IMG/VR virus record: IMGVR_UViG_3300020577_006811
Location: 1 to 64,000 of that record
Source of the DNA: a virus
Taxonomy: Duplodnaviria; Caudoviricetes
DNA: 64,000 nt
Direction: 5' to 3' (one strand)
Below, in pieces: positions 15,742-30,619 of this stretch (its first letter is position 1; each line of letters opens with the position of its first letter). A program made the position numbers and the translations under genes. The notes under the pieces are model-generated. The model saw only the letters and a list, made by a program, of their open reading frames with translations, was not told the DNA's origin and made no database searches.

Positions 15742-18672
15742 ATGCACGCGCCTGCCGATCTCCGCCAGAGGAAGGAACGCATCGCCGCGCTTATCTACGA
15801 AAAGCGCAAGCGGGAAAACCGCATCGTTATGGAAGACAGCCTCTACGAGTTCACGCGCGCGGCGTGGTCTTCCATTGAGAGCAGCACCTTCCAAGACAGT
15901 TGGGCCATTGAGGCGCTGTGCGAGCACCTGCAGGCCGTTACCTACGGCCACATCAAAAGATTGCTTATAAATTTCCCGCCGAGATGCGGCAAGCCGGTCG
16001 CGCACGACAGCCTTGTGCTCACGCGGGCTAAAGGGTTGGTTAAAATTGATCAGATTATCGTCGGGGACGAGGTTCTGACTCACAAGGGCAATTGGAAGCC
16101 AGTAACTGCCGTCCACCGCCAGGGCGTGCTGCCAATATTGCGTGTGCATACTGCTGGAGGCCGCATGGTAGAAGCTGCGCCAGACCACCCGTTTTTGACG
16201 CCTAATGGGTGGGTGGAGGCTGGCGCCCTTATGGTTGACGATGTATTGGGCATCGTACCTCCGCAATCGCCGTGCGGACGAAACTCCATACCTTTAGAGG
16301 AGGCCCGTTTGCTCGGGTACTTTGTTGGCGACGGGCATTGTGGCGGCACGCCAAACATCACATGCGCGGATGACGACATAGCGGCCGACATCATCCATTG
16401 CATCCGTGCGACCGGATTCGTTGCCGCCGACCAGTCGTATCGCATGGCGAATACCGGATACATGCTTCGCCGTATATCAATGAAGCCAATTAGCCACGCA
16501 AAGGAGCGCCGGCACAAAGGCTACAAAGGGCCCGTTCGGCAATGGCTGGCGGACCGTGGCCTAGACCATCAGTCATCATACACAAAGATGGCGCCATCTA
16601 GCATCATGGAGGGCTCGGATGACATCGTGGCCGCTTTCTTAGGGGCCTATTGGTCCTGCGATGGGTTTATCACAGCGAGAGGAAGAAAGGGCGACGGCGT
16701 CGAACGGACCGACCTGCAAATTGGTTGTGACAGCGTCAACCAAGCGTTCATGCGACAGGTTCAGACATTGTTGGCTCGTCTCGGGATAAACTCGCATGTC
16801 CGGACCAAGGTCAACAAGAAGCTCAAAACCAAGCGGCAAGGCGACCAATACGTTTCTTATAGCTTGACCCTCCGCTCGCAAGACGACTGTTATCGTTTTG
16901 CCCAACGCATCAAGCTAAAGCATTCCAAGCGCTTTAAGCTGGAATACGAATACAAACGCCGGTTTGATTTTGACCGCCCCATATGGGGTGAAGTGATTGT
17001 TTCCGTTGAAGAGGCTGGTGAGAAAGAATGCTTATGCCTTACTGTGGCTGATGATGAAAGTTTCACGGCTAACGGATTTGCCGTGCACAACAGTTCAGTC
17101 GCATCCATATGCTGGCCGGCTTGGACATGGGCGCAGCCTGAAGAGCGCCGCTCGTTCGTATGTGGCCCAGGCACGCAGTTCCTTACGGCGTCGTACAATC
17201 ACGCGCTATCCTTGAAACTCAGCACTGCCAGCCGGCGCCTGATCCTCTCGCCGTTCTATCAAGAGTATTGGGGTGACCGGTTTAAGCTTGCAGGCGACCA
17301 AAACTCTAAAACTCAGTACGACACGGACCAGGGTGGCACGCGCATATCTACGTCAATCGGTGGTAGTCTTATCGGTATCGGCGGTGCGGTACTACTAGCG
17401 GACGACCCCCACAACACAGAGTCCGTCGAAAGCGAAGCCGAGCGCGAGACTGTGCTTCGTTGGTGGAAGGAATTCAGCAGCACGCGCCTCAACGACCCGA
17501 ACGAGTCTGCCATCGTCGTGGTCATGCAGCGACTGAACGAGGCTGACGTCAGCGGCGTCATCCTTGAAAGCTCGCGCGACTGGACGCACCTCATGCTGCC
17601 AATGCGCTACGACGAAACGCGCCATTGCCGCACGGTCATTGCCCCCGGAAAGTTTTGGGAAGATCCCCGCAAGGATACAGGCGAATCCTTGATGTGGCCG
17701 GAGCGCTTCGGCGCGCAGAAGGTCAAGGAGATGGAAGACGATCTTGGGCCGTACATGGCGTCCGGTCGTCTCCAGCAGCGTCCGTCTCCGCAGGGCGGTG
17801 GCATTCTCAAGCGCGAATGGTGGAAGACTTGGGAAGAGCCAGAGTACCCGTACTGCTACTATAAGTGGGCGTCTGCCGACACGGCTTATACGGAAGCCGA
17901 AGAGAACGACCCCACGGGTTTTACGGTCTGGGGGCTCTTTGAGATTGCGCACCAGCCGCACATCATCCTCATGGATGCGTGGCGCAAGCGATTGGAACTG
18001 CACATTCCGCAGCAATGGGAAGACAAAGACGGCACCCCATCCAGCCGATTGGAGCAGGTCAAGTCGTGGCAGCGTGCAGCGTGGGCTCAATACAAAGCCA
18101 TGCAACAAGCACAGCAGGGTATGAAGCCGCCGCAGATTTCGCCCGAGTTGGAGCCGTGGTCCACGTACATCCATTACGGCATCAGCAACGCCGACCGCTG
18201 GCCCGACGAAACCTACGAGATGTGGCGACTGCGCACACAGGAGAAGTGGGGTCTGTGCGAATGGATCGCGCATTCGTGCAGGCGCTTCAGCGTCAACGAA
18301 CTTCTGATTGAGGCTAAGGCGACCGGCATCACAGTCGCTCAAGAGCTTCGGCGGCTGAATGGCAACGATGGCTGGGGCATTCAACTAAAGACTCCGCAGG
18401 GCGACAAGGTCGCACGTGCCTATGCGGTGCAAAGCACGCTAAGCTCCGGGCTCGTATATGCGCCAGACAAAGCCTGGGCCGATCTTGTGCTTGAGGAAAC
18501 CAGTTCGTTTCCCAAACACCGCTATAAAGATTTGACCGATTCTACCTCAATGGCGTGGCTTCACGTCCGCGAGATGGGCATGTTGACTAGACCTGAAGAA
18601 CGGTTGCTTGCCGAGCAAATGGCCGCACAATACCGGCCGCAAACCGCCCCACTTTACCCAGGATCGCGATGA
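15742..18672 (+). CDS. terL: terminase large subunit (intein-interrupted)
   Basis: Spliced Walker A LINFPPRCGK|SSVAS; Walker B LLADDPH; VVMQRL; QQRP; C-terminal nuclease SADTAY / IEAKATG / DLTDSTS. Confidence 0.95.
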   Translation: MHAPADLRQRKERIAALIYEKRKRENRIVMEDSLYEFTRAAWSSIESSTFQDSWAIEALCEHLQAVTYGHIKRLLINFPPRCGKPVAHDSLVLTRAKGLVKIDQIIVGDEVLTHKGNWKPVTAVHRQGVLPILRVHTAGGRMVEAAPDHPFLTPNGWVEAGALMVDDVLGIVPPQSPCGRNSIPLEEARLLGYFVGDGHCGGTPNITCADDDIAADIIHCIRATGFVAADQSYRMANTGYMLRRISMKPISHAKERRHKGYKGPVRQWLADRGLDHQSSYTKMAPSSIMEGSDDIVAAFLGAYWSCDGFITARGRKGDGVERTDLQIGCDSVNQAFMRQVQTLLARLGINSHVRTKVNKKLKTKRQGDQYVSYSLTLRSQDDCYRFAQRIKLKHSKRFKLEYEYKRRFDFDRPIWGEVIVSVEEAGEKECLCLTVADDESFTANGFAVHNSSVASICWPAWTWAQPEERRSFVCGPGTQFLTASYNHALSLKLSTASRRLILSPFYQEYWGDRFKLAGDQNSKTQYDTDQGGTRISTSIGGSLIGIGGAVLLADDPHNTESVESEAERETVLRWWKEFSSTRLNDPNESAIVVVMQRLNEADVSGVILESSRDWTHLMLPMRYDETRHCRTVIAPGKFWEDPRKDTGESLMWPERFGAQKVKEMEDDLGPYMASGRLQQRPSPQGGGILKREWWKTWEEPEYPYCYYKWASADTAYTEAEENDPTGFTVWGLFEIAHQPHIILMDAWRKRLELHIPQQWEDKDGTPSSRLEQVKSWQRAAWAQYKAMQQAQQGMKPPQISPELEPWSTYIHYGISNADRWPDETYEMWRLRTQEKWGLCEWIAHSCRRFSVNELLIEAKATGITVAQELRRLNGNDGWGIQLKTPQGDKVARAYAVQSTLSSGLVYAPDKAWADLVLEETSSFPKHRYKDLTDSTSMAWLHVREMGMLTRPEERLLAEQMAAQYRPQTAPLYPGSR
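15994..17091 (+). mobile_element. intein (366 aa) with LAGLIDADG homing endonuclease
   Basis: Starts PVAHDSLV after GK; block B AAPDHPF; LLGYFVGDGH and FLGAYWSCDGF; ends SFTANGFAVHN|S. Confidence 0.92.
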
Positions 18673-19430: not shown

Positions 19431-19506
19431 GTCACGGTACCCCAACGGTAGAGGGCCCGGCCTCAAACCCCGGTCAGTGTCCGTTCGAATCGGACCCGTG
19501 ACACCA
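19431..19506 (+). tRNA. tRNA-Leu(CAA), short variable loop
   Basis: Acceptor GTCACGG/CCGTGAC; loop CT-CAA-AC; T arm GTCCG-TTCGAAT-CGGAC; A73; CCA. Confidence 0.8.
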
Positions 19507-19510
19507 TCAC

Positions 19511-19587
19511 ACTCGTCTGGCGGAATTGGTATACGCGGTGGGCTTAAACCCCACGTCATGATCCCGGTTCGAACCCGGGGACGAGTA
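19511..19587 (+). tRNA. tRNA-Leu(TAA)
   Basis: Acceptor ACTCGTC/GACGAGT; GTGGG-CTTAAAC-CCCAC; no encoded CCA. Confidence 0.85.
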
Positions 19588-19588
19588 C

Positions 19589-19678
19589 GGGAAGGGTTCC
19601 CCTCAGCGGTCTGTAAAACCGCCGGCTTTGAAAGAGAGGGGTGGCTGCCTAGAGGATCGTAACCTCCCCAACCCACCA
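19589..19678 (+). ncRNA. non-canonical tRNA-like RNA, anticodon GTA (Tyr-like)
   Basis: GGGAAGGG/CCCAACCC acceptor, GCGGT-CTGTAAA-ACCGC arm, GAGG-ATCGTAA-CCTC T arm, ACCA end; no canonical D arm. Confidence 0.7.
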
Positions 19679-19681
19679 TTT

Positions 19682-19756
19682 CGGCCTGTGGTGTAACGGT
19701 CAGCACCCTCGGCTCATAACCGAGTTGTGTGGGTTCAAGTCCCACCGGGCCAACCA
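19682..19756 (+). tRNA. tRNA-Met(CAT), initiator-like
   Basis: C1:A72 mismatch; CTCGG-CTCATAA-CCGAG; CCA. Confidence 0.9.
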
Positions 19757-19913
19757 TCTAAGTAGATTGCCCTTGCAATGTCTCGCGCACCATGCCATGC
19801 AGGGCCATGGACACGACGATCACAACACGACGACCGAGACGGCCACGGCGACCCGCCAGGTAACGTCCGCATTCCGTGTTGTGCGCATCGCGCGCAAATC
19901 CTCCATCATTATA

Positions 19914-19988
19914 GCTGGTTTAGCTCAGCGACAGAGCAGCGGTTTTGTAAACCGAAGGCCGTGGGTTCAAATCCTACAACCAGCACCA
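19914..19988 (+). tRNA. tRNA-Thr(TGT)
   Basis: GCTGGTT/AACCAGC; loop TT-TGT-AA; CCA. Confidence 0.9.
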
Positions 19989-19992
19989 AACC

Positions 19993-20068
19993 GCGCACGT
20001 GGCCCAATGGATAAGGCGTCGGTCTACGGAACCGAAGATTGCAGGTTCAAGTCCTGCCGTGCGCTCCA
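19993..20068 (+). tRNA. tRNA-Arg(ACG)
   Basis: GCGCACG/CGTGCGC; TCGGT-CTACGGA-ACCGA; CCA. Confidence 0.95.
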
Positions 20069-20073
20069 CCTTT

Positions 20074-20152
20074 CAGCGCGTAGGGAAGTCTGGTCGTTCC
20101 CGCCTGCCTTGGAAGCAGGAAACCGCTGGTTCAAATCCAGCCGCGCTGACCA
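20074..20152 (+). tRNA. tRNA-Pro(TGG)
   Basis: CAGCGCG/CGCGCTG; CCTGC-CTTGGAA-GCAGG; CCA. Confidence 0.95.
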
Positions 20153-20156
20153 CTTT

Positions 20157-20232
20157 GCACGCCTAGCTCAGCGGATAGAGCGCTGGTTTCCGAAACCAGA
20201 GGACGCAGGTTCGACCCCTGCGGCGTGCTCCA
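20157..20232 (+). tRNA. tRNA-Arg(CCG)
   Basis: GCACGCC/GGCGTGC; CTGGT-TTCCGAA-ACCAG; CCA. Confidence 0.95.
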
Positions 20233-20238
20233 CAGACT

Positions 20239-20321
20239 GCGCAAGTAGCCGGTTCCGGCTTCTACCCGGTTATCCGTAATTGGAGCTGAAAATGAGGGTT
20301 CGAATCCTTCCTTGCGCGCCA
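20239..20321 (+). ncRNA. non-canonical tRNA-like RNA, probable anticodon TCT (Arg-like)
   Basis: Perfect GCGCAAG/CTTGCGC acceptor, CCGG-CTTCTAC-CCGG arm, GAGGG-TTCGAAT-CCTTC T arm, GCCA end; no canonical D arm. Confidence 0.7.
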
Positions 20322-20353
20322 AACAAAAACGGCGGGGCCTTTCGGCACCCGCC
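20322..20353 (-). terminator. intrinsic terminator between the convergent tRNA groups
   Basis: Minus strand GGCGGGTGCC-GAAA-GGCCCCGCC followed by GTTTTTGTTT. Confidence 0.65.
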
Positions 20354-20446
20354 TGAGTTGGGATAGAGCTGAGCCCTGATCTCAGCGCACCCACTCTAAC
20401 CGCAGCGGCGTTGCACGCCTACAAGATCGCGGCGGTTCTCCACAGA

Positions 20447-20520
20447 TGGCAGCCCCTCCCCGAGTTGAACGGGGCCTTACGCAGTCAAAGTGCGTCGTCA
20501 TACCGATAGACCAAGGGGCC
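20447..20520 (-). tRNA. tRNA-Gln(TTG)
   Basis: GGCCCCT/AGGGGCT; ACGCA-CTTTGAC-TGCGT; G73; CCA. Confidence 0.9.
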
Positions 20521-21164: not shown

Positions 21165-23747
21165 ATGGCCAAAAAGCCCGCCAAGTCCCGCTCCAAGAAA
21201 AAGATCCAGGAAATCCCGGCGTTCGAAGTCGGGGGCGCCATCATGGAGCCGGAAGGCGAGGCCGCGGCGCCGACGATGGATGCAGCCTTTGGCCCCGCCA
21301 TCACCATCGTTAACGACGACGACAGCGTGACCATTGAGTTTGACACGGGCGAGGAAGAACTTCCCGACCCCGAGTTTGAAGACAACCTTGCAGAGCATAT
21401 CGATCGCACGACGCTCGGGCGCATTGCCAGCGACCTGCTGGAGCAGATCGAACAGGACGACCGCGACCGCTCCGAGTGGCTGACCCAGCGCGCCGACGGC
21501 CTAGAACTGCTGGGCACGAAGGTGGAAAAGCCAGGCGGCGGCGCTGTGGGCACGTCGTCTACGGCGGTGCCGGGGCAATCCACCGTGCGCGACGGCATTC
21601 TCAACGAGGCCGTGATCCGCTTCCAGGCCAACGCCTTTGCCGAGCTTTGTCCCTCTGAAGGCCCGGTCAAGGTCATGAACTATTCCAGCGAAACGCTGGA
21701 CGACGACAAACTGGCTGAAGACCTTGAGAAAGACCTGAACTTTTATCTGACCGGAGCCGGCGGCTCGGCCACAGCGACCGAGTATTACCCCGACACCCGC
21801 AACATGCTGTGGTGGGTCGGGTATGCCTCTGGCATGTTCAAGAAGATCTACAACTGCCCGCTGCGAGGGCGCCCCGTTTCCGAAAGCGTGGACGGCTCCG
21901 ATCTGATTGTGCCGTCCACAGCCACCAACCTGCACAACGCCCGCCGCATCACGCATCAGATGACTATGAGTCCGGTCATCATGAAGCGGATGCAGGTGCT
22001 GGGCGAATACCGCAACGTCGCCTTGCAGCAACCGAGCCCGCACAACAACGCCCTGGTTAACAGTGAAGCCGACATCGTCGGCATGAACCCGAACCAGACG
22101 CGGCCCGAGGACCAGGACTTTACCGTCTACGAGTGCTACTGCGACCTGGACATCCCAGGCTTTGAGCACACCGACAAGAAGGGCGAGCCCACGGGGCTGC
22201 CCGTGCCCTACATCGTGGTGATCGACAAGGACTCGCAAGAGATCCTGAGTATCAAGCGCAACTGGGATAAGCCGAAAGAGGGCGAAGAGGCCAAGCTTCC
22301 CAAGGCCAAGATTCCCTTCGTGCTGTTCCCGTATGTCACCGGGCTTGGCTTCTACGGCCAAGGCCTGCTGCACCAGCTCGGCAACTACACCACCGCGCTT
22401 ACCGCGATGCTGCGCGAGTGCATCGACGCGGGCATGTTTGCCTCGTTCCCGGGCTTCCTGTTTGCCAAGCCCATGGGGCGCCAGCTTCAAAACGAGTTCC
22501 GCGTGCCACCGGGCGGCGGCGCACCGATCGATGTCTCTGCCACCGGCAACGACATCACCAAAGCCGTTATGCCGCTGCCGTACAAGGACGTGTCGGCGGC
22601 CATGGTCGCGCTCATGTCGCAGACGCGGGAGCAAGCGGCCCGCTACGGCGGCATGGCCGAATCACCGACTGGAGAAGGCGTCATCAACGCGCCCGTGGGC
22701 AGCGTGCTGGCGGCCATCGACCAGGCCACCCGCATTGAAGGCGGCGTCCACAAGGCCCTATATGCGGCGCAGCGCGAAGAGTTCGAACTGCTGTTTTCCT
22801 TGTTCAAGGACAACCCCGAACCGCTGTGGGCCGGCAACCCACGCCCGGCCATGGGCGCCGATCCCGCCACGCGCATGCGCCGCTGGGAGCAGGCCACCAA
22901 GCATTGCAGCCTGACGCCTGCGTCAGACCCGAACGTGCCCTCGCACATGCATCGCTTGGCCAAAGCCAGCACGTACCTGCAGACGGCTCTGGCCGTCCCC
23001 GGCGTGTTTGACATGCGCCGCGTGCTGACCCGTTGGGCCGCCATGGTGCGCATTGACGACATTGAACAGGACTTCCTGCCCGAGCAACCGCCAATGCAGC
23101 CGCCGCCGCTCAATCCGCTGCAGGTCGAGAAGCTGCGCATTGACGACAAGAATGCCGATACCCGCCGTCTTGACGTGGTTCTCAAGCACCAAGGCGCGAC
23201 CGCCAAACTGCAATCGGATCAGGAGATTGCAGCCGCCAAGATGGCCGAAGGACAGGCAACGGCTTTGGATCAGGGCCAGATTGACCCGCTTCAGGCGCGT
23301 GCGCTTGACCTCAAACAGCAGCAGTTGGACCAGAACGCGCAGAAGCTGGCCGTTGACGCGCACCAGAAGCATGCCGAACTGAACAGCAAGGAGTCTATTG
23401 AAGCGCTGAAACTGGTCAACGCTGCCTTCGTGCACCCGGAGTCGCAGGGAGTAGCAAGCCAGGAGATGGCAAAGCTTCAAGACATCATCGCGCCAGCTGC
23501 CGACAACAACCACCGCCCCGCCGCCGCGCCGTTCGGGTTGTCGTCCATGGCAGCCGGCGGCCCCGTGCGCGACGAAGAGACAGTCATTGAACCGGACGAG
23601 ATCATCGTCATCCGGCCTTACGAAGCCCCCTCTGAAGACGACATCGCGCAGGCCGTTGTGGAAGACGCCGCCTACAGGGCGCAGTTGGATCAAATCCTGC
23701 ACGATTATCTTCTTGGGCGTCGGCAGGAACGCGCCTATACCAATTGA
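21165..23747 (+). CDS. portal protein
   Basis: 860 aa after the terminase; DD.DRSEW...GLELLG, E.VIRFQA.A..EL.P..GPVK, FYG.GL.H.LG motifs; long coiled-coil C-terminus. Confidence 0.85.
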   Translation: MAKKPAKSRSKKKIQEIPAFEVGGAIMEPEGEAAAPTMDAAFGPAITIVNDDDSVTIEFDTGEEELPDPEFEDNLAEHIDRTTLGRIASDLLEQIEQDDRDRSEWLTQRADGLELLGTKVEKPGGGAVGTSSTAVPGQSTVRDGILNEAVIRFQANAFAELCPSEGPVKVMNYSSETLDDDKLAEDLEKDLNFYLTGAGGSATATEYYPDTRNMLWWVGYASGMFKKIYNCPLRGRPVSESVDGSDLIVPSTATNLHNARRITHQMTMSPVIMKRMQVLGEYRNVALQQPSPHNNALVNSEADIVGMNPNQTRPEDQDFTVYECYCDLDIPGFEHTDKKGEPTGLPVPYIVVIDKDSQEILSIKRNWDKPKEGEEAKLPKAKIPFVLFPYVTGLGFYGQGLLHQLGNYTTALTAMLRECIDAGMFASFPGFLFAKPMGRQLQNEFRVPPGGGAPIDVSATGNDITKAVMPLPYKDVSAAMVALMSQTREQAARYGGMAESPTGEGVINAPVGSVLAAIDQATRIEGGVHKALYAAQREEFELLFSLFKDNPEPLWAGNPRPAMGADPATRMRRWEQATKHCSLTPASDPNVPSHMHRLAKASTYLQTALAVPGVFDMRRVLTRWAAMVRIDDIEQDFLPEQPPMQPPPLNPLQVEKLRIDDKNADTRRLDVVLKHQGATAKLQSDQEIAAAKMAEGQATALDQGQIDPLQARALDLKQQQLDQNAQKLAVDAHQKHAELNSKESIEALKLVNAAFVHPESQGVASQEMAKLQDIIAPAADNNHRPAAAPFGLSSMAAGGPVRDEETVIEPDEIIVIRPYEAPSEDDIAQAVVEDAAYRAQLDQILHDYLLGRRQERAYTN

Positions 23748-25448: not shown

Positions 25449-26618
25449 ATGATTGACAACACGCAACCCATCCCCGTTGACGACGACTTCAGCGACCTTC
25501 TCGTGGAGATCGCCCCCGACAGTATGGAGATGGGGCAGGATGCCGACGGCATGCCAAAGGCGATGCCGGCCGAAGCCAAGGCCGCTCCTGTGGCCAAGGA
25601 GATGGTGGAGAAAGCCCCCCCGGTTCCCAAGCCCAAGTTCAGCGATGCCGATTACGAAGCGACGCAGGAAGCCCTGCGGCAGGCGCGCGAAGAGGCGGAA
25701 GCCTTGGCCCGTGACCGCACGCAGGAGCGTGAGGCACGGCTGAAGGCCGAACGGGACGCGCACAAACTGCACTACGCGGCGGTCAACGCGCATGCGCAGA
25801 AGGTGCAGGCGGAACTGGACCATGTGACCGACTCCATCAACCACTGGGAGACGACAGCCGAAGTGGCGCGGCGCAATCTGGCCTTGTCGCTGGAAGCGCA
25901 GAACGCCGAAGAAATCTCGAAGTGGACCAGCGCTATTGCCAAGGCGGAAACGTCAATCTCATCCCTCAAGAACGCACTGCCGACGCTGGAACACGAACAG
26001 CGGCTGGCGGCCCGGGATGTTGACATCGCGTCACGCACGCCGCAGCCGGAAGCCAAGAAAGAAGACCCAGCACCTCCTAAGCAGCAGACCCCCGACGACT
26101 GGATTGCCACGCAGCGCAAGGCGGTGGGCAGCAAGTTTGCGGATTGGCTGGACAACAACCGCGAGTTCGTCACCAACCGCAAGATGCATGAGAAGTTTCT
26201 GGCGTTCGCCAACAACTTCCAGGTCGTGGAGGAAATGCCCCTCAACAGCGACCAGTTCATTGAGGCCCTGAACGCCAAGTTCTTGGGCAAGCAACCCAAG
26301 CCGGAGGCCGAGGCCGTGAACGAAGAGCCCGAGACCCACGAGGACGCAGAGGAAGCCCCGGCCGCAACACCGGCCAAGCGCACGACGGTGGCGGCTCCCG
26401 TAACGCGCGGTCGCCCCGCCCAGCCGTCGTCGTCGGCCAACAAGATCACGCTGACCCGGGAGCAGTATGGCATCGCCCCGGATCTCTACCCCTCGTACAA
26501 CGACCTCTCCCCGGAAACGCGTGCCAAGTTCCCGGCCTGGTCGGAGAACGCCGCGCGCTATCAGTACAGCCAGGATCTGAAGCGCGCACAGGCCGACGGC
26601 AAGTTCAGCCGCGGCTAA
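25449..26618 (+). CDS. putative capsid scaffolding protein
   Basis: Acidic coiled coil upstream of the capsid genes; C-terminal KITLTREQ motif. Confidence 0.7.
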   Translation: MIDNTQPIPVDDDFSDLLVEIAPDSMEMGQDADGMPKAMPAEAKAAPVAKEMVEKAPPVPKPKFSDADYEATQEALRQAREEAEALARDRTQEREARLKAERDAHKLHYAAVNAHAQKVQAELDHVTDSINHWETTAEVARRNLALSLEAQNAEEISKWTSAIAKAETSISSLKNALPTLEHEQRLAARDVDIASRTPQPEAKKEDPAPPKQQTPDDWIATQRKAVGSKFADWLDNNREFVTNRKMHEKFLAFANNFQVVEEMPLNSDQFIEALNAKFLGKQPKPEAEAVNEEPETHEDAEEAPAATPAKRTTVAAPVTRGRPAQPSSSANKITLTREQYGIAPDLYPSYNDLSPETRAKFPAWSENAARYQYSQDLKRAQADGKFSRG

Positions 26619-26666
26619 CCCCCTTTTCTGTTGCGTCCCCTCAGCCTCTCCTAGGAGACACTGCCC

Positions 26667-27299
26667 ATGGCCACCCGCACCGCCCGTCCTGCCGCCGCTG
26701 AGCCCGCCCGACAGGCCCCCGCCGCCCCGCCGCCCGACCGCGAACCCGCGCGCGCCGAAGCCCGCGAGGCCGTCAACACGGGACCCATCATCCCAGGCCG
26801 CGCCGTTGCCTACAACCGTGCCGGCATGCCGATCCAGCGTGCAGGCGCCGAAACCGGCGTGGACGAGTTCTTCATCCCGCCGCACCTGCCCCCCGCCGGC
26901 TGGTCCTGGGAATGGAAGCGCGAGAGCAACCGCGGCGAAACCGACCCCTTCTACATGAGCAAGCTCATGCAGGTCGGCTGGGAGCCCGTCATGTACGAAA
27001 GCTACCCCGGCGTCTTCGCGCCCGTCTACGACGACCAAGGCAAGGAAATGAAGGGCCCCGTTCGCCGCAAGGGCCTGATGCTTATGGAGCGCTCGGCCGT
27101 TCTGACCGAGGAAGCGTTTCTGGACGAAAAGCGCCGCGCGGACGAACGGGTCGGCACCGCCAAGCACCAGTACAGCCGTCTGGATACCGGCGGCACGTCC
27201 ACAGTCGAGATTGACGACGCGGCCCGCCGGATGTCCGGCATCCGGACTACGCGCGAGGTTGTCGATTATCCGCCCGGTCAACGTCAGCGGATTGAATGA
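26667..27299 (+). CDS. conserved head-region protein
   Basis: PAGWSWEWKR...G..DP...GWEPV...GLMLMER; AGGAG RBS. Confidence 0.75.
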   Translation: MATRTARPAAAEPARQAPAAPPPDREPARAEAREAVNTGPIIPGRAVAYNRAGMPIQRAGAETGVDEFFIPPHLPPAGWSWEWKRESNRGETDPFYMSKLMQVGWEPVMYESYPGVFAPVYDDQGKEMKGPVRRKGLMLMERSAVLTEEAFLDEKRRADERVGTAKHQYSRLDTGGTSTVEIDDAARRMSGIRTTREVVDYPPGQRQRIE

Positions 27300-27333
27300 C
27301 CTGAGTGACGCGTGTGCGAGACGCGAAACGCAG

Positions 27334-27365
27334 AAAGGCGCTCTTCGGGGCGCCTTTTTTGTTTT
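27334..27365 (+). terminator. intrinsic terminator
   Basis: AAAGGCGCTC-TTCG-GGGCGCCTTT followed by a T run. Confidence 0.8.
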
Positions 27366-27489
27366 CCACGCCACACATTTTGGCTTGCTTGCCGGAAATT
27401 CAAAAAATGCGTGGTTAATTTTATTGACGCTTGACACCTGCGCATGGATAACCATCCGCACAGTGTTCATTGGCGTACCCGAAACCGAA

Positions 27490-27706
27490 CCATCTCCAAC
27501 AACAGAGATGGGAGGGCGACCAATGCCCCGGGAAAGTAATCTCCCACCGGCCACGCCGGTTGAGTAAGGTGAAAGCCTAAGCGGAGACCAGCAGCCCACG
27601 CCCCCGACGTAAGTTGGGAGTGCGTCCGTTCCTGAAACGGCGCTGGTCTCTTTCCCGTTGCGGATGACGCAGCGGCCAGAGAAGCGCCTAAACAAATAGG
27701 TGCTTC
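27490..27706 (+). ncRNA. putative structured 5-prime leader RNA of the capsid operon
   Basis: At least nine stems including a 9-bp long-range helix and two GNRA loops; last stem covers the RBS. Confidence 0.55.
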
Positions 27707-27711
27707 CTCTC

Positions 27712-28362
27712 ATGGCAAATCAGTTCGCACCCTATGGTCTCCTGCCGATTCAGTCGGCAGTCGGCGCCGCCTCGAATTTCGAGATGGTGCAGGCGCAAAT
27801 CGCCTACAACGATACGACGCCGATCTACCGCGGCGACCCGGTCAAGCTCCTCAGCACCGGCTACGTGTCACAGTGGAGCGCCGGCACTGCCGTGTCGCAA
27901 CTCTACGGCATCTTCTGGGGTGTGCATTACCTGAGTTCGTCTCAGGGCAAGCTTGTCCCCAATAACTTCTGGCCCGGCGCCGACGTTGCCTCCACAGCCC
28001 AGAACACCATCGTCGCCGATATCATCCCCTGCACCGGCAGCGCCCCGCCGCTCTTCCGCGTCCAGTCGGATGCCACGGGCGTTGCTTTCGCCGACATCGG
28101 CCAGAACATTGACGTGGCCCTCGGCACCGGCAGCGCGCTCAGCGGCAAGTCGGGCGCCTACCTCAACACCAGCACGCTCAACACCACGGCCACGCTCCCC
28201 TTCCGCCTCGTCCAGCTCTACGGCGGTCTCCCCGGCGCAGGCGGCTTCATGGGCGCCCAGCCCAACGACGCGGGCAACCCCTACGGCGGCTCTGCAACCG
28301 GCGCCTACAACTGGGTCATCGTCCGCGCCAACGTCACGGGCGCTGGTGCAACCGGCATCTAA
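27712..28362 (+). CDS. putative head decoration / minor capsid protein
   Basis: MANQFAPYGL.P...IY.GDPV; directly upstream of the MCP. Confidence 0.7.
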   Translation: MANQFAPYGLLPIQSAVGAASNFEMVQAQIAYNDTTPIYRGDPVKLLSTGYVSQWSAGTAVSQLYGIFWGVHYLSSSQGKLVPNNFWPGADVASTAQNTIVADIIPCTGSAPPLFRVQSDATGVAFADIGQNIDVALGTGSALSGKSGAYLNTSTLNTTATLPFRLVQLYGGLPGAGGFMGAQPNDAGNPYGGSATGAYNWVIVRANVTGAGATGI

Positions 28363-28412
28363 GGCCGAACACGTCTCTCTCAACGGCCGCTGAGCCAAAA
28401 GGAAACTGACAC

Positions 28413-29324
28413 ATGGCAGCTAATAGCGCACAAATTCGCAACCTCCTCCTCCCGGGCCTGTACAAGGTCGCGGGTCAGTACGAGCGTTACCCCAAGGAGT
28501 GGTCGCAGATCTTTACGACCGTCAAGAGCACCCTGCAGACCGAATCTGCCGTGCAGACCCGCATTCTGGGCCTCGCGCAGATGAAGGTGGAAGGCGGCGC
28601 AACGGCCTTTGACAACAACATGGGCCAGCGCTGGGTGTGGAACGCCACCGCCTTCGAAGTGGCGCTCGGCTACGCAATCACCCTGCGCGCCATTGAAGAC
28701 AACCAGTACACCAAGGATTTCAACATGATGAACCTGAAGCTGATCGACAGCTTCAGCCAGTTCAAGGAAATCCAGGGTGCCAACATTCTCAACAACGGTC
28801 AGACCTACGATCCGACCGTTGGCGGTGACGGCGTGGCTCTGTTCTCCACGGCGCATCCCTACGACCTCGGCACATGGGCCAACACGTTCTCCACGCAGTT
28901 GGACCTCAACGAGTCGTCCCTGCTGCAGGCCTACGTGAATATCGGCTCCACGTTCGTGGACGAAGCCGGTCTGCGCGTGAACGCCAAGGCCACCAAGCTC
29001 ATCGTCCCCCCAGCCCTTGAGCCCGTTGCCCTGCGTCTGATGCGCTCGGAAATGCGCCCCGGCACCAGCAACAACGACCCCAACGTCATCCCGATGATGG
29101 AGGCCGGCACCGACAAGATGATGGTCTACCATTACCTCACGTCCAACTACGCGTGGTTCGTGAAAACCGACAAGGACGGCCTGCACTACTTCGACCGCAT
29201 CGCATTTGATGCGGACTCCTGGATCGACAACGTCACGGACAATATCCTACATAAAGGGAGAGAGCGCTACACATTTTCCTACCGCGATCCCCGAGCCATT
29301 TGGGGAAGTTTCCCTACATCCTAA
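28413..29324 (+). CDS. major capsid protein
   Basis: AQIRNLLLPGL, K.EG....D, .ALG.AIT..AIEDN.Y, DGVALFSTAHP, LIVPP.LE..A.RL, RY.FS..DPR motifs. Confidence 0.9.
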   Translation: MAANSAQIRNLLLPGLYKVAGQYERYPKEWSQIFTTVKSTLQTESAVQTRILGLAQMKVEGGATAFDNNMGQRWVWNATAFEVALGYAITLRAIEDNQYTKDFNMMNLKLIDSFSQFKEIQGANILNNGQTYDPTVGGDGVALFSTAHPYDLGTWANTFSTQLDLNESSLLQAYVNIGSTFVDEAGLRVNAKATKLIVPPALEPVALRLMRSEMRPGTSNNDPNVIPMMEAGTDKMMVYHYLTSNYAWFVKTDKDGLHYFDRIAFDADSWIDNVTDNILHKGRERYTFSYRDPRAIWGSFPTS

Positions 29325-29491
29325 CAAAAATGGGGCTGAGAGCATGTACCGCTCTCAGCCCAATCCTCTAATATCGCAAACTGACCTGCTCACGGTAAAT
29401 TAACAATTAAAGTCGAAGGAGGCCTTGTCCTGATATGGGTGCGGCTATACACATATCTCTGTCGGTAGACCGCCCATCGAAAGGAACGCCC

Positions 29492-30619
29492 ATGTCCCGT
29501 CACGCTGAGAACGTTTTGTCCACGGTCACGCAAGATCGCCTCATGCATCTTCTCGCCTACGACCCTGACACTGGATCACTGTCATGGCGCAACCCCTTGT
29601 CCCCCGCCGTCCGAGCTGGAGACGTGGCCGGAACGGTGTCCGGTAAAAACAACAAATATCGGTATGTATCCATTGATGGCAGTGTGTTTCTTGCGCATCG
29701 GCTTGCGTGGCTTATGGTTTATGGTGCTTGGCCAGGGGCCGAAATTAGTGCGCGAGACGGCAACCTTCTCAATTTAAGAATTGGAAATCTCTACATCCGC
29801 TCCAAGGCGGAAGTTATTGCGGCGCGCAAGACCCGCTCTAAGTCCGGCATTAAAGGCGTCTATCAACAACCTGGGGGCAAGTGGTCGGCTCAAATTCGGC
29901 GCGACTACCAATTTGTGCATTTGGGCACGTTTGCGACTAAAGAAGAGGCTGGCAAAGCGGTGGCCGCCGCAAATGATCAACCACTTGATAAGTGGCCGCG
30001 CAAAGAAACGAATGACCTAGCGCGGCGCTCAACACGCAACAGCCTCTTGCATGGACTTTGGAAGAGAACCTTGCGCGACAACACCGTTGCTCCTGAATGG
30101 AACGCCTTTTCGGCTTTTGCCGCCGATGTAGGAGAAATGGCGTATCCGCACTGCAGGCTTGTCCCGCTGGATGGAAATGCAGTTCTTGGGCCCGAAAACT
30201 TCAGTGTTGAAGCCCGGGCGAAATTCGATCGCAAGACACCAGAAGGACGCCGCGCGTACTATTTGCACAAAAACAAAGTGCGCAAGCCGCAGATGCGCGA
30301 ACACCATCTTCAGCGAAAATTCGATCTTTCGCTTGAGGAGTACGCCGCCATGTCAAAGGCTCAGGGCGATGTATGCGCCATCTGCAGGCAGCCAGAAACG
30401 GCAACGCGCCTTGGCACGAAATTGCCCCTTGCCGTGGATCACTGCCACGGCAGCGGCGAAATTCGCGAACTGCTGTGCCGTGATTGTAACCACGTGCTTG
30501 GCAAGTTCAAAGACGATCCCTCGCGCTTCCGCGCGGCAGCCGACTACCTTGATCGGCATCGCGCGAAAGTTGATAGCGTTCCCGCGTCTTCTCCCGTCCC
30601 CCTAGAAAAGGAGCGCTAG
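29492..30619 (+). CDS. composite homing endonuclease: degenerate HNH + AP2 + second degenerate HNH-like module + endonuclease VII domain
   Basis: FLAHRLAWLMVYG.WP; SGIKGVY...W.AQI...HLGTF; CAICRQP...LAVDHCH...RELLCRDCN. Confidence 0.85.
   Translation: MSRHAENVLSTVTQDRLMHLLAYDPDTGSLSWRNPLSPAVRAGDVAGTVSGKNNKYRYVSIDGSVFLAHRLAWLMVYGAWPGAEISARDGNLLNLRIGNLYIRSKAEVIAARKTRSKSGIKGVYQQPGGKWSAQIRRDYQFVHLGTFATKEEAGKAVAAANDQPLDKWPRKETNDLARRSTRNSLLHGLWKRTLRDNTVAPEWNAFSAFAADVGEMAYPHCRLVPLDGNAVLGPENFSVEARAKFDRKTPEGRRAYYLHKNKVRKPQMREHHLQRKFDLSLEEYAAMSKAQGDVCAICRQPETATRLGTKLPLAVDHCHGSGEIRELLCRDCNHVLGKFKDDPSRFRAAADYLDRHRAKVDSVPASSPVPLEKER

Follow-up and report, generated by a model that had tools for sequence, protein, structure and literature searches.

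The DNA analysed here (the window, 64 kb in length) is the first part of a viral record of 82,194 bp that is about 82% complete. Its structural genes lie on the + strand from ~15.7 kb to 61 kb. The features needed in the following are:

15742-18672, + strand: large terminase gene (976 aa)
19431-20520: cluster of eight tRNA genes (seven on the + strand, one on the - strand) between the terminase and portal genes
21165-23747, + strand: portal gene
after the portal gene in the gene order, + strand: GroES-like gene
+ strand: gene of a 389-aa acidic coiled-coil protein, scaffold-like in appearance
+ strand: gene of a 210-aa protein, the last gene before the terminator and leader region
27332-27359, + strand: intrinsic terminator (12-bp stem and T run) that ends the upstream unit, from the portal gene to the 210-aa gene
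27424-27452, + strand: sigma-70-like promoter with -35 TTGACG (27424-29), a 17-nt spacer and a weak -10 GATAAC (27447-52)
27431-27458, + strand: alternative promoter with TTGACA (27431-36), a 16-nt spacer and CATCCG (27453-58)
about 27460-27711, + strand: structured leader RNA, 5' of the decoration and major capsid protein (MCP) genes
27712-28362, + strand: probable capsid decoration/cement protein gene (216 aa)
28413-29324, + strand: MCP gene, Mu gpT-like / Phage_capsid_4
29435-30619: fused HNH / AP2 / endonuclease VII gene, following the MCP gene

The tail and lysis genes are located after the HNH/endonuclease VII gene, on the + strand. The scaffold-like gene belongs to the upstream transcription unit and does not lie behind the leader.

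Some features of the surrounding genes were noted in passing. The terminase profile matched the large terminase only from ~residue 450 on, and residues 88-152 weakly matched an anaerobic ribonucleotide reductase PHROG; the N-terminal stretch may be an extra domain or an insertion. The HNH/AP2/endonuclease VII gene was also found behind the MCP gene in most relatives (L290, L292, L294, L295 and L299-L301). As a conserved neighbour, it is therefore not a sporadic homing insertion. Directly 3' of the MCP gene lies a 12-bp hairpin (29333-29361) with a T run on the - strand only and a preceding A tract on the + strand. This hairpin would terminate antisense transcription or serve as a 3' stabiliser, rather than mark the end of the capsid mRNA. 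A 560-aa ORF on the - strand (26031-27713) was rejected as coding: it had no PHROG match, crosses the terminator, the promoter and the indel-rich RNA, and is probably a GC-rich artefact.

The 216-aa product of the first gene behind the leader matched PHROG 37556 (unnamed) and no Pfam family. Its AlphaFold model was built from 33 homologues and had a pLDDT of 80. The nine best structural matches of the model were all capsid decoration or cement proteins (Z 8.2-5.2), namely those of HFTV1 (Z 8.2), FCWL1, BB1, Sf11, the TW1 capsid-stabilising protein, Pam3, XM1, SHP and lambda gpD (Z 5.2). Judged by the model, with Z values that are middling, the protein probably has the lambda gpD / SHP-like decoration fold. 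All relatives have the gene order decoration, then MCP, and the lambda D-E arrangement is alike, with the decoration gene immediately before the capsid gene. Accordingly, the leader heads a unit for the two most abundant shell proteins. A nucleotide search with 27300-28400 against 50,697 phage records gave no match. The protein search with the decoration protein returned two distant matches only (uncultured or poorly annotated) and no experimentally studied relative, and a scan of genome contigs with the same protein found no prophage copy and hence no clue to the host.

The terminator at 27332-27359 is the sole strong + strand terminator within 14-54 kb. The initial annotation had proposed a TTGACG-N17-GATAAC promoter behind a terminator, and both elements were confirmed. 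At the corresponding position, at least 14 leaders have a -35 box (G)TTGACG followed by a spacer of 17 nt (L002, L013, L015, L017, L018, L035, L097, L290, L294, L295, L297, L299, L300 and L301); the -10 was weak and variable. The consensus promoter scan missed the promoter at 27424-27452 because of its weak -10. Terminators upstream of the leader were visible in L290, L292, L295, L300 and L301, and relatives with a co-directional upstream gene usually had one ahead of the leader. The order of terminator, promoter and leader is kept in relatives. In one of them (the contig of P0045), the leader is directly preceded by a gene of 68 aa whose product weakly matches sigma-70 region 4 and could be a small transcription factor.

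We folded 27453-27730 with RNAfold and used 200 dinucleotide shuffles as control. The + strand reached -116.8 kcal/mol vs -87.9 +/- 5.4 kcal/mol for the shuffled sequences (z -5.41), and no shuffle was as good. The - strand was less exceptional (z -3.28). The leader is base-paired throughout, beginning near the 5' end. Every stem that had been listed beforehand from the letters is present on the + strand:

27490-27496 / 27505-27511: CCATCTC/GAGATGG
27514-17 / 27525-28: GGGC/GCCC
27530-33 / 27542-45: GGGA/TCCC
27546-51 / 27555-60: ACCGGC/GCCGGT
27568-77: GGT-GAAA-GCC
27584-92 / 27642-50: GAGACCAGC/GCTGGTCTC, 9 bp
enclosed by the GAGACCAGC/GCTGGTCTC helix: CCCGAC-GTAA-GTTGGG
27626-30 / 27636-40: CCGTT/AACGG
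27655-62 / 27668-75: CCGTTGCG/CGCAGCGG
27681-90 / 27697-706: GAAGCGCCTA/TAGGTGCTTC

All but one of these stems were in the minimum-free-energy (MFE) fold and/or kept in homologues. The exception is GGGA/TCCC, a stem of the MFE fold that relatives do not keep. Their GGG is paired with a CCC further upstream (P0), and their TCTCC with GGAGA (P1). The leader of this phage is divided into the following elements:

27478-27532, + strand: P0 domain, with closing stem CCCG (27478-81) / CGGG (27529-32) and hairpins 27490-27511 and 27514-27528
27540-27587, + strand: three-way junction P1/P2/P3
27540-44 / 27583-87: P1, TCTCC/GGAGA
27546-27560: P2 hairpin
27561-67: conserved joiner UGAGUAA
27568-77: P3 hairpin, variable in length in relatives
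27578-82: joiner UAAGC
27584-27650, + strand: P4 domain, with the GAGACCAGC/GCTGGTCTC closing helix, variable hairpin A (27597-27625) and conserved hairpin B (27626-27640)
27637-27648, + strand: near-invariant box ACGGCGCUG(A/G)(C/U)C, on the 3' side of hairpin B and the 3' strand of P4
27655-27675, + strand: P5 hairpin CCGTTGCG-GATGA-CGCAGCGG
27676-27716, + strand: hairpin occluding the Shine-Dalgarno sequence (SD) and AUG, with the anti-SD arm (27676-27690), SD AGGUG (27698-27702) and AUG (27712-14)

From 5' to 3', the architecture shared with relatives starts with the P0 stem, which closes zero to two hairpins, followed by a short AUGU linker. P1 then closes the three-way junction (P2, UGAGUAA, P3 and the joiner AAAG), and P4 is a long-range helix that directly abuts P1. 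The 3' part holds the near-invariant ACGGCGCUGACC box, P5 and the SD/AUG hairpin. The conserved core comprises ~170 nt with at least seven helices, and the invariant box 12 nt. A leader peptide was rejected: the ATG of the conserved AUGU is absent here (AAGT), and L001-type leaders do not preserve the frame from it to UGAGUAA.

Relatives were collected by protein-guided searches of viral and metagenome contigs and by look-ups of the encoding contigs, which yielded loci with the same gene pair. Some of them are IMG/VR contigs. The upstream intergenic region of the closer relatives aligned with the leader of this phage. In all relatives, the leader is on the same strand as the decoration gene and immediately 5' of it, with one copy per genome. 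The upstream neighbour differs among relatives, even in orientation, and the placement of the leader is unchanged. Conserved position, single copy and variable neighbours fit a leader that acts in cis on a capsid cassette which is insulated and has its own promoter.

The main alignment (A8) comprised 22 distinct leaders from metagenomic phages. The absence of covariation in homologues had been named beforehand, together with a reporter insensitive to stem mutations, as the result that would speak against the leader; the covariation score of A8 was 0.323 vs 0.136 in column shuffles and was reached by none of 500 shuffles. With partners slid by 1-3 columns, the score was at most 0.09. As A8 was fitted to a covariance model, its pairing counts are inflated: 89.3% of cells pair (76.1% in column shuffles), and compensatory changes on both sides were found in 15 of 26 pairs. 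These changes affected all five pairs of P1, three of six in P2 and five of six in P3.

Alignment-free tests were added for this reason. The duplex energy of two strands from one leader (cognate) was compared with that of strands from different leaders (non-cognate) in 20000 permutations. The cognate strands paired better in P1 (-8.9 vs -6.1 kcal/mol; 0 of 20000 permutations), in the P0 domain (-12.2 vs -9.9 kcal/mol; 0 of 20000) and in lower P4 (-9.0 vs -7.0 kcal/mol; 14 of 20000). G-U pairs were frequent, which places the structure in the + strand RNA. The variants of the P0 closing stem were all complementary (CTCGG/CCGAG, CCCGAG/CTCGGG, CTGTCGAG/CTCGACAG and CCCGGAGA/TCTCCGGG). The first P0 hairpin is lineage-specific and missing from L290 and L300. 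At the position of P5, relatives hold a hairpin of other sequence (CCTGC/GCAGG, TCTGC/GCAGA or GACC../..GGTC). The near-invariant box was conserved in the alignments A4, A7 and A8. RNAalifold on raw MAFFT alignments gave a partial fold only, because the variable hairpins shift the columns.

The covariance model R1 was too specific, and R2 was built from 18 leaders. R2 recovered four leaders outside its seed (L049, L097, L294 and L299) with 29-33 bits and E ~1e-6, each directly upstream of a homologous decoration gene. It found no member in ~110 loci with a decoration protein 37-50% identical; the breadth given here for the leader family is a lower bound. A pattern scan of viral contigs with GAGTAA-N65-95-CGGCGCTGR hit 118 places, all of which were chance matches on inspection. 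Taken on the covariation and the strand bias, the element is almost certainly a genuine, conserved, strand-specific structured RNA. Probably, it also belongs to the 5' leader of the mRNA that encodes the decoration and capsid proteins.

Other leaders showed partial similarities. In L019, L026, L092, L029 and L021, leaders with three or four hairpins were seen ~200 nt before the decoration gene. The hairpins have in common a CGC triloop closed by G-C (CCG-CGC-CGG) and a CGGCGC(U) box; these leaders may be a diverged form of the leader RNA or repeated protein-binding sites. In the low-GC freshwater relatives L155 and L086, the leader of the decoration gene is much shorter and has a CGGCGCU box in addition to a CCCCCGGUG..GGAAG hairpin. 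The heptamer CGGCGCT occurred up to 220 nt upstream in 25 of 136 unique loci, with ~9 expected from its rate in downstream coding sequence. A conserved CAUGAC(C) was seen just 3' of P4 in L001, L003, L016, L297, L300 and L035. Its pairing partner in the L003-type clade is a distal GGUCAUG, and the two enclose a long hairpin.

The SD of the decoration gene (AGGTG, 27698-27702) lies 9 nt before the ATG at 27712. The local fold of hairpin 27676-27716 had -17.8 kcal/mol, with AGGUG and AUG both paired. In the leader of this phage, the SD was unpaired with a probability of 0.11, and it was paired in every constrained fold but the one with the box paired to the anti-SD arm. In 18 leaders, the arms of the SD hairpin gave -15.9 kcal/mol for cognate vs -11.4 kcal/mol for non-cognate strands (0 of 20000 permutations). 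The same test on the MCP start region as a control gave no signal (-8.3 vs -8.5). Distal pairs changed in concert (GAAG/CUUC, AGAG/CUCU, CCAAG/CUUGG, UCAG/CUGA and GGAUG/CAUCC). As the arms covary and the MCP control is null, occlusion of the SD is a selected feature. Hence, the earlier reading that the last hairpin buries the ribosome-binding site held, for the AUG as well as the SD, and with compensatory changes in relatives.

The start-region accessibility differed modestly in the comparison with the MCP gene (0.37 vs 0.46). The clade of L001, L003, L016 and L297 is without a strong SD hairpin, and L003 and L297 have a U-tract hairpin in its place. A terminator inside the leader was rejected as a general platform, with U tracts in L003 and L297 only.

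The core contains pairings that compete with each other. The purines of the P1 3' strand are also the 5' strand of the lowest P4 pairs, and in this phage, all five P1 purines are common to both. The P1 5' strand and the P4 3' strand are equally good partners for columns 151-153 of A8. In column 153, a G-to-A change was matched by C-to-U in both partners in five sequences. Such double compensation was found in three lineages (this phage, L292 and the clade of L294, L097 and L299). P1 and lower P4 are mutually exclusive and both maintained, which hints at a conformational switch. Only three to five pairs take part in the toggle, which alone is not enough to free the box.

Complementarity was also found between the invariant box and the downstream anti-SD arm. 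In 15 of 19 leaders, the best downstream partner of the box was located 20-26 nt ahead of the AUG, and the complementarity persists in L035 and L292 despite the different sequence of their SD hairpin. The mean energy of box and anti-SD arm was -13.3 kcal/mol vs -9.7 kcal/mol for coding-sequence windows (6 of 18 leaders individually below 0.05; median p 0.11; p 0.087 in this phage), which is only suggestive of a real alternative pairing, with the complementarity partly expected because the box is SD-like.

The nearest-neighbour energies of three folds of the leader of this phage were compared:

minimum-free-energy fold: -115.3 kcal/mol
comparative fold with P0 and P1 enforced: -106.8 kcal/mol
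fold with P0, P1 and the box paired to the anti-SD arm, SD open: -101.1 kcal/mol

The comparative fold was 8.5 kcal/mol worse than the MFE fold, and the SD-open fold was 14 kcal/mol worse than the MFE fold and exceeded the comparative closed fold by 5.7 kcal/mol. By default, the SD is therefore closed. To open it, several kcal/mol would have to be put in, and a bound factor could be their source.

Rfam 15 was searched at the gathering threshold over the whole window and gave only the eight tRNAs (19.4-20.5 kb). With E up to 10 over 27300-27800, the rows over the structured leader were noise. The best row was MicX, with 27.4 bits vs a gathering score of 75, and it was on the terminator and promoter stretch, not on the leader. 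Ten homologous loci gave no match with E up to 0.05. The Rfam/Infernal comparison suggested in the initial annotation thus links the leader to no Rfam 15 family. We found no description in the literature of a capsid-operon leader of such kind. Structured cis-regulatory leaders are a known kind of element; we found no prior description of the family, and its association with capsid-shell genes and its fold are new.

The Mu-gpT-DE RNA motif of Rfam is associated with Mu gpT-like major head genes and lies downstream of gpT. The leader differs from it in lying upstream of the gene that precedes the MCP gene, and it did not match this motif in Rfam. A computational survey of IMG/VR reported 10,006 structured-RNA candidates (Fremin and Bhatt 2023, PMC10690425). 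Five of them are upstream of the PHA00201-type major capsid gene and are named without description. They are alike in being predicted cis-regulatory structures directly upstream of capsid genes of uncultured phages. Compared by that paper's brief mention alone, these candidates and the leader family may overlap.

The leader shares several features with riboswitches and orphan candidates that have translational platforms. It has a covarying multi-helix domain in the 5' UTR with conserved unpaired junction nucleotides, and so a conserved, aptamer-like domain supported by covariation was found. A downstream SD-occluding hairpin and mutually exclusive helices that share a strand are also alike. 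As in riboswitches, the putative platform varies by clade, with an SD hairpin in most and a U-tract hairpin in two. The leader differs from riboswitches in being tied to a phage structural-gene pair, not to metabolic or transport genes, and in being larger than most aptamers. It matches no Rfam class.

Autogenous translational operators are known from ribosomal-protein leaders, T4 gene 32, the regA targets and the MS2 coat-protein operator. The P22 scaffolding protein controls itself post-transcriptionally and is a phage precedent for feedback by a morphogenetic protein. The leader is like these operators in being a structured RNA that heads an operon for abundant assembly proteins and acts, as we propose, on translation initiation. 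It differs from them in its first encoded protein, which is acidic and poor in lysine and arginine, and in the scaffold-like gene, which is in the upstream unit. The decoration protein has a pI of 4.98 and 7 K+R in 216 residues and is therefore unlikely to be an autogenous RNA binder. The pI of the MCP is 5.45. These values argue weakly against simple autogenous feedback by the two proteins, which is therefore not favoured.

The course of events reads as follows. The terminator stops the upstream transcripts, and transcription starts anew at the conserved host-type promoter. The new transcript opens with the multi-domain RNA, i.e. P0, the P1/P2/P3 junction, P4 with the ACGGCGCUGACC box, and P5, and the stable hairpin pairs the SD and AUG with the anti-SD arm. 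We propose that translation of the decoration gene would thereby be held down by default. This control would reach the decoration gene and perhaps the whole decoration/MCP pair. The conserved core would be a sensor that binds a small molecule or a protein of the phage or the host, re-pairs and thus relieves the occlusion. The shared P1/P4 purine tract would toggle between its two partners, and the invariant box would leave P4, capture the anti-SD arm and free the SD.

A cis-regulatory leader that acts on translation initiation as a responsive switch, with the core as its presumed sensor, has in our estimate about an even chance of being correct. The narrower proposal is tentative, and we consider it possible rather than probable: the core would be a true sensor, either a riboswitch of a new type or a protein-responsive RNA switch of a new class, gating capsid-shell translation by the state of the host or the infection.

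The main rival is a constitutive leader without a switch, which would protect a very abundant late mRNA from 5'-end-dependent decay or serve as a processing site. Expression would thereby be held at one level, as it is by the 5' stem-loops of the T7 gene 10 and ompA leaders. In a processing variant, a cut by e.g. RNase III would open the SD hairpin. An insulated high-expression cassette (terminator, strong -35, leader and the two most abundant virion proteins) agrees with a constitutive leader, as does the pairing throughout the leader from near the 5' end and the strong thermodynamic preference for the closed state. That no ligand or partner was found points the same way. However, a 5' hairpin suffices for a stabiliser, and the ~170 nt here keep the unpaired joiners UGAGUAA and AAAG. 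Moreover, the invariant 12-nt box lies inside helices that are otherwise free to covary, and two alternative pairings are both maintained. Permanent occlusion of the SD and AUG would also be odd for a protein present at hundreds of copies per virion. On this evidence, we consider a constitutive leader rather unlikely.

A gene for an independent trans-acting small RNA, with host or phage targets and merely located upstream of the capsid genes, would explain the separate promoter, and the U-tract hairpin of L003 and L297 could end a transcript of ~250 nt. Most members, including this phage, are however without a terminator between the core and the gene. Relative to the decoration gene, neither position nor strand varies, and the last hairpin contains the SD and AUG of that very gene, which makes a small RNA very unlikely.

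Processive antitermination of the HK022 put type would require the nascent leader to bind RNA polymerase and cause read-through of the terminators in the late operon. The leader resembles put RNA and the lambda N-leader hairpin, which occludes a ribosome-binding site, in being a cis-acting structured phage RNA close to a promoter. It follows the promoter immediately and heads ~30 kb of + strand structural genes, and L003 and L297 have their U-tract hairpin between the core and the gene. The leader differs from both in size and architecture: put RNA consists of two stem-loops in ~70 nt, whereas the core here has ~170 nt and at least seven helices and is about three times the size of put RNAs. 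There is also little to suppress. No convincing + strand intrinsic terminator that would need read-through was found at 27.4-54 kb, and in the hairpin that follows the MCP gene, the T run belongs to the - strand. Covariation of the SD hairpin speaks for a role in translation. We regard antitermination as highly improbable.

A self-cleaving ribozyme or a packaging-type RNA, both offered in the initial annotation, agrees with the size and complexity of the fold only and is the least credible reading: no Rfam ribozyme or other family matched the leader (E up to 10 here, up to 0.05 in the ten homologous loci), and this phage packages dsDNA with a large terminase, with nothing to tie the leader, which always accompanies the start of one gene, to packaging. 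The other part of that interpretation, a cis-regulatory RNA for capsid stoichiometry, was partly supported, in that a large + strand structured leader of the capsid pair was confirmed.

To our knowledge, structured cis-regulatory RNAs are well known for metabolic and ribosomal-protein genes, and none has been characterised for the capsid-shell genes of tailed dsDNA phages. The high, balanced output of capsid and decoration proteins in these phages is mostly explained by promoters alone. If the proposed switch is true, it would be the first switch known to control capsid production, with the P1/P4 exchange and the pairing of the box with the anti-SD arm as its moving parts. If an effector exists, it would form a new ligand-RNA or protein-RNA pair with the leader. 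If there is no effector, the element would be a compact, portable high-expression leader, with design rules readable from the alignment. Entry points are given by the ~170 conserved nt with their strong covariation, the 12-nt box, the selected SD hairpin and the doubly compensated alternative pairing. With them, post-transcriptional control of virion production can be put to the test in a group of uncultured phages found in metagenomes of soil, groundwater and other environments.
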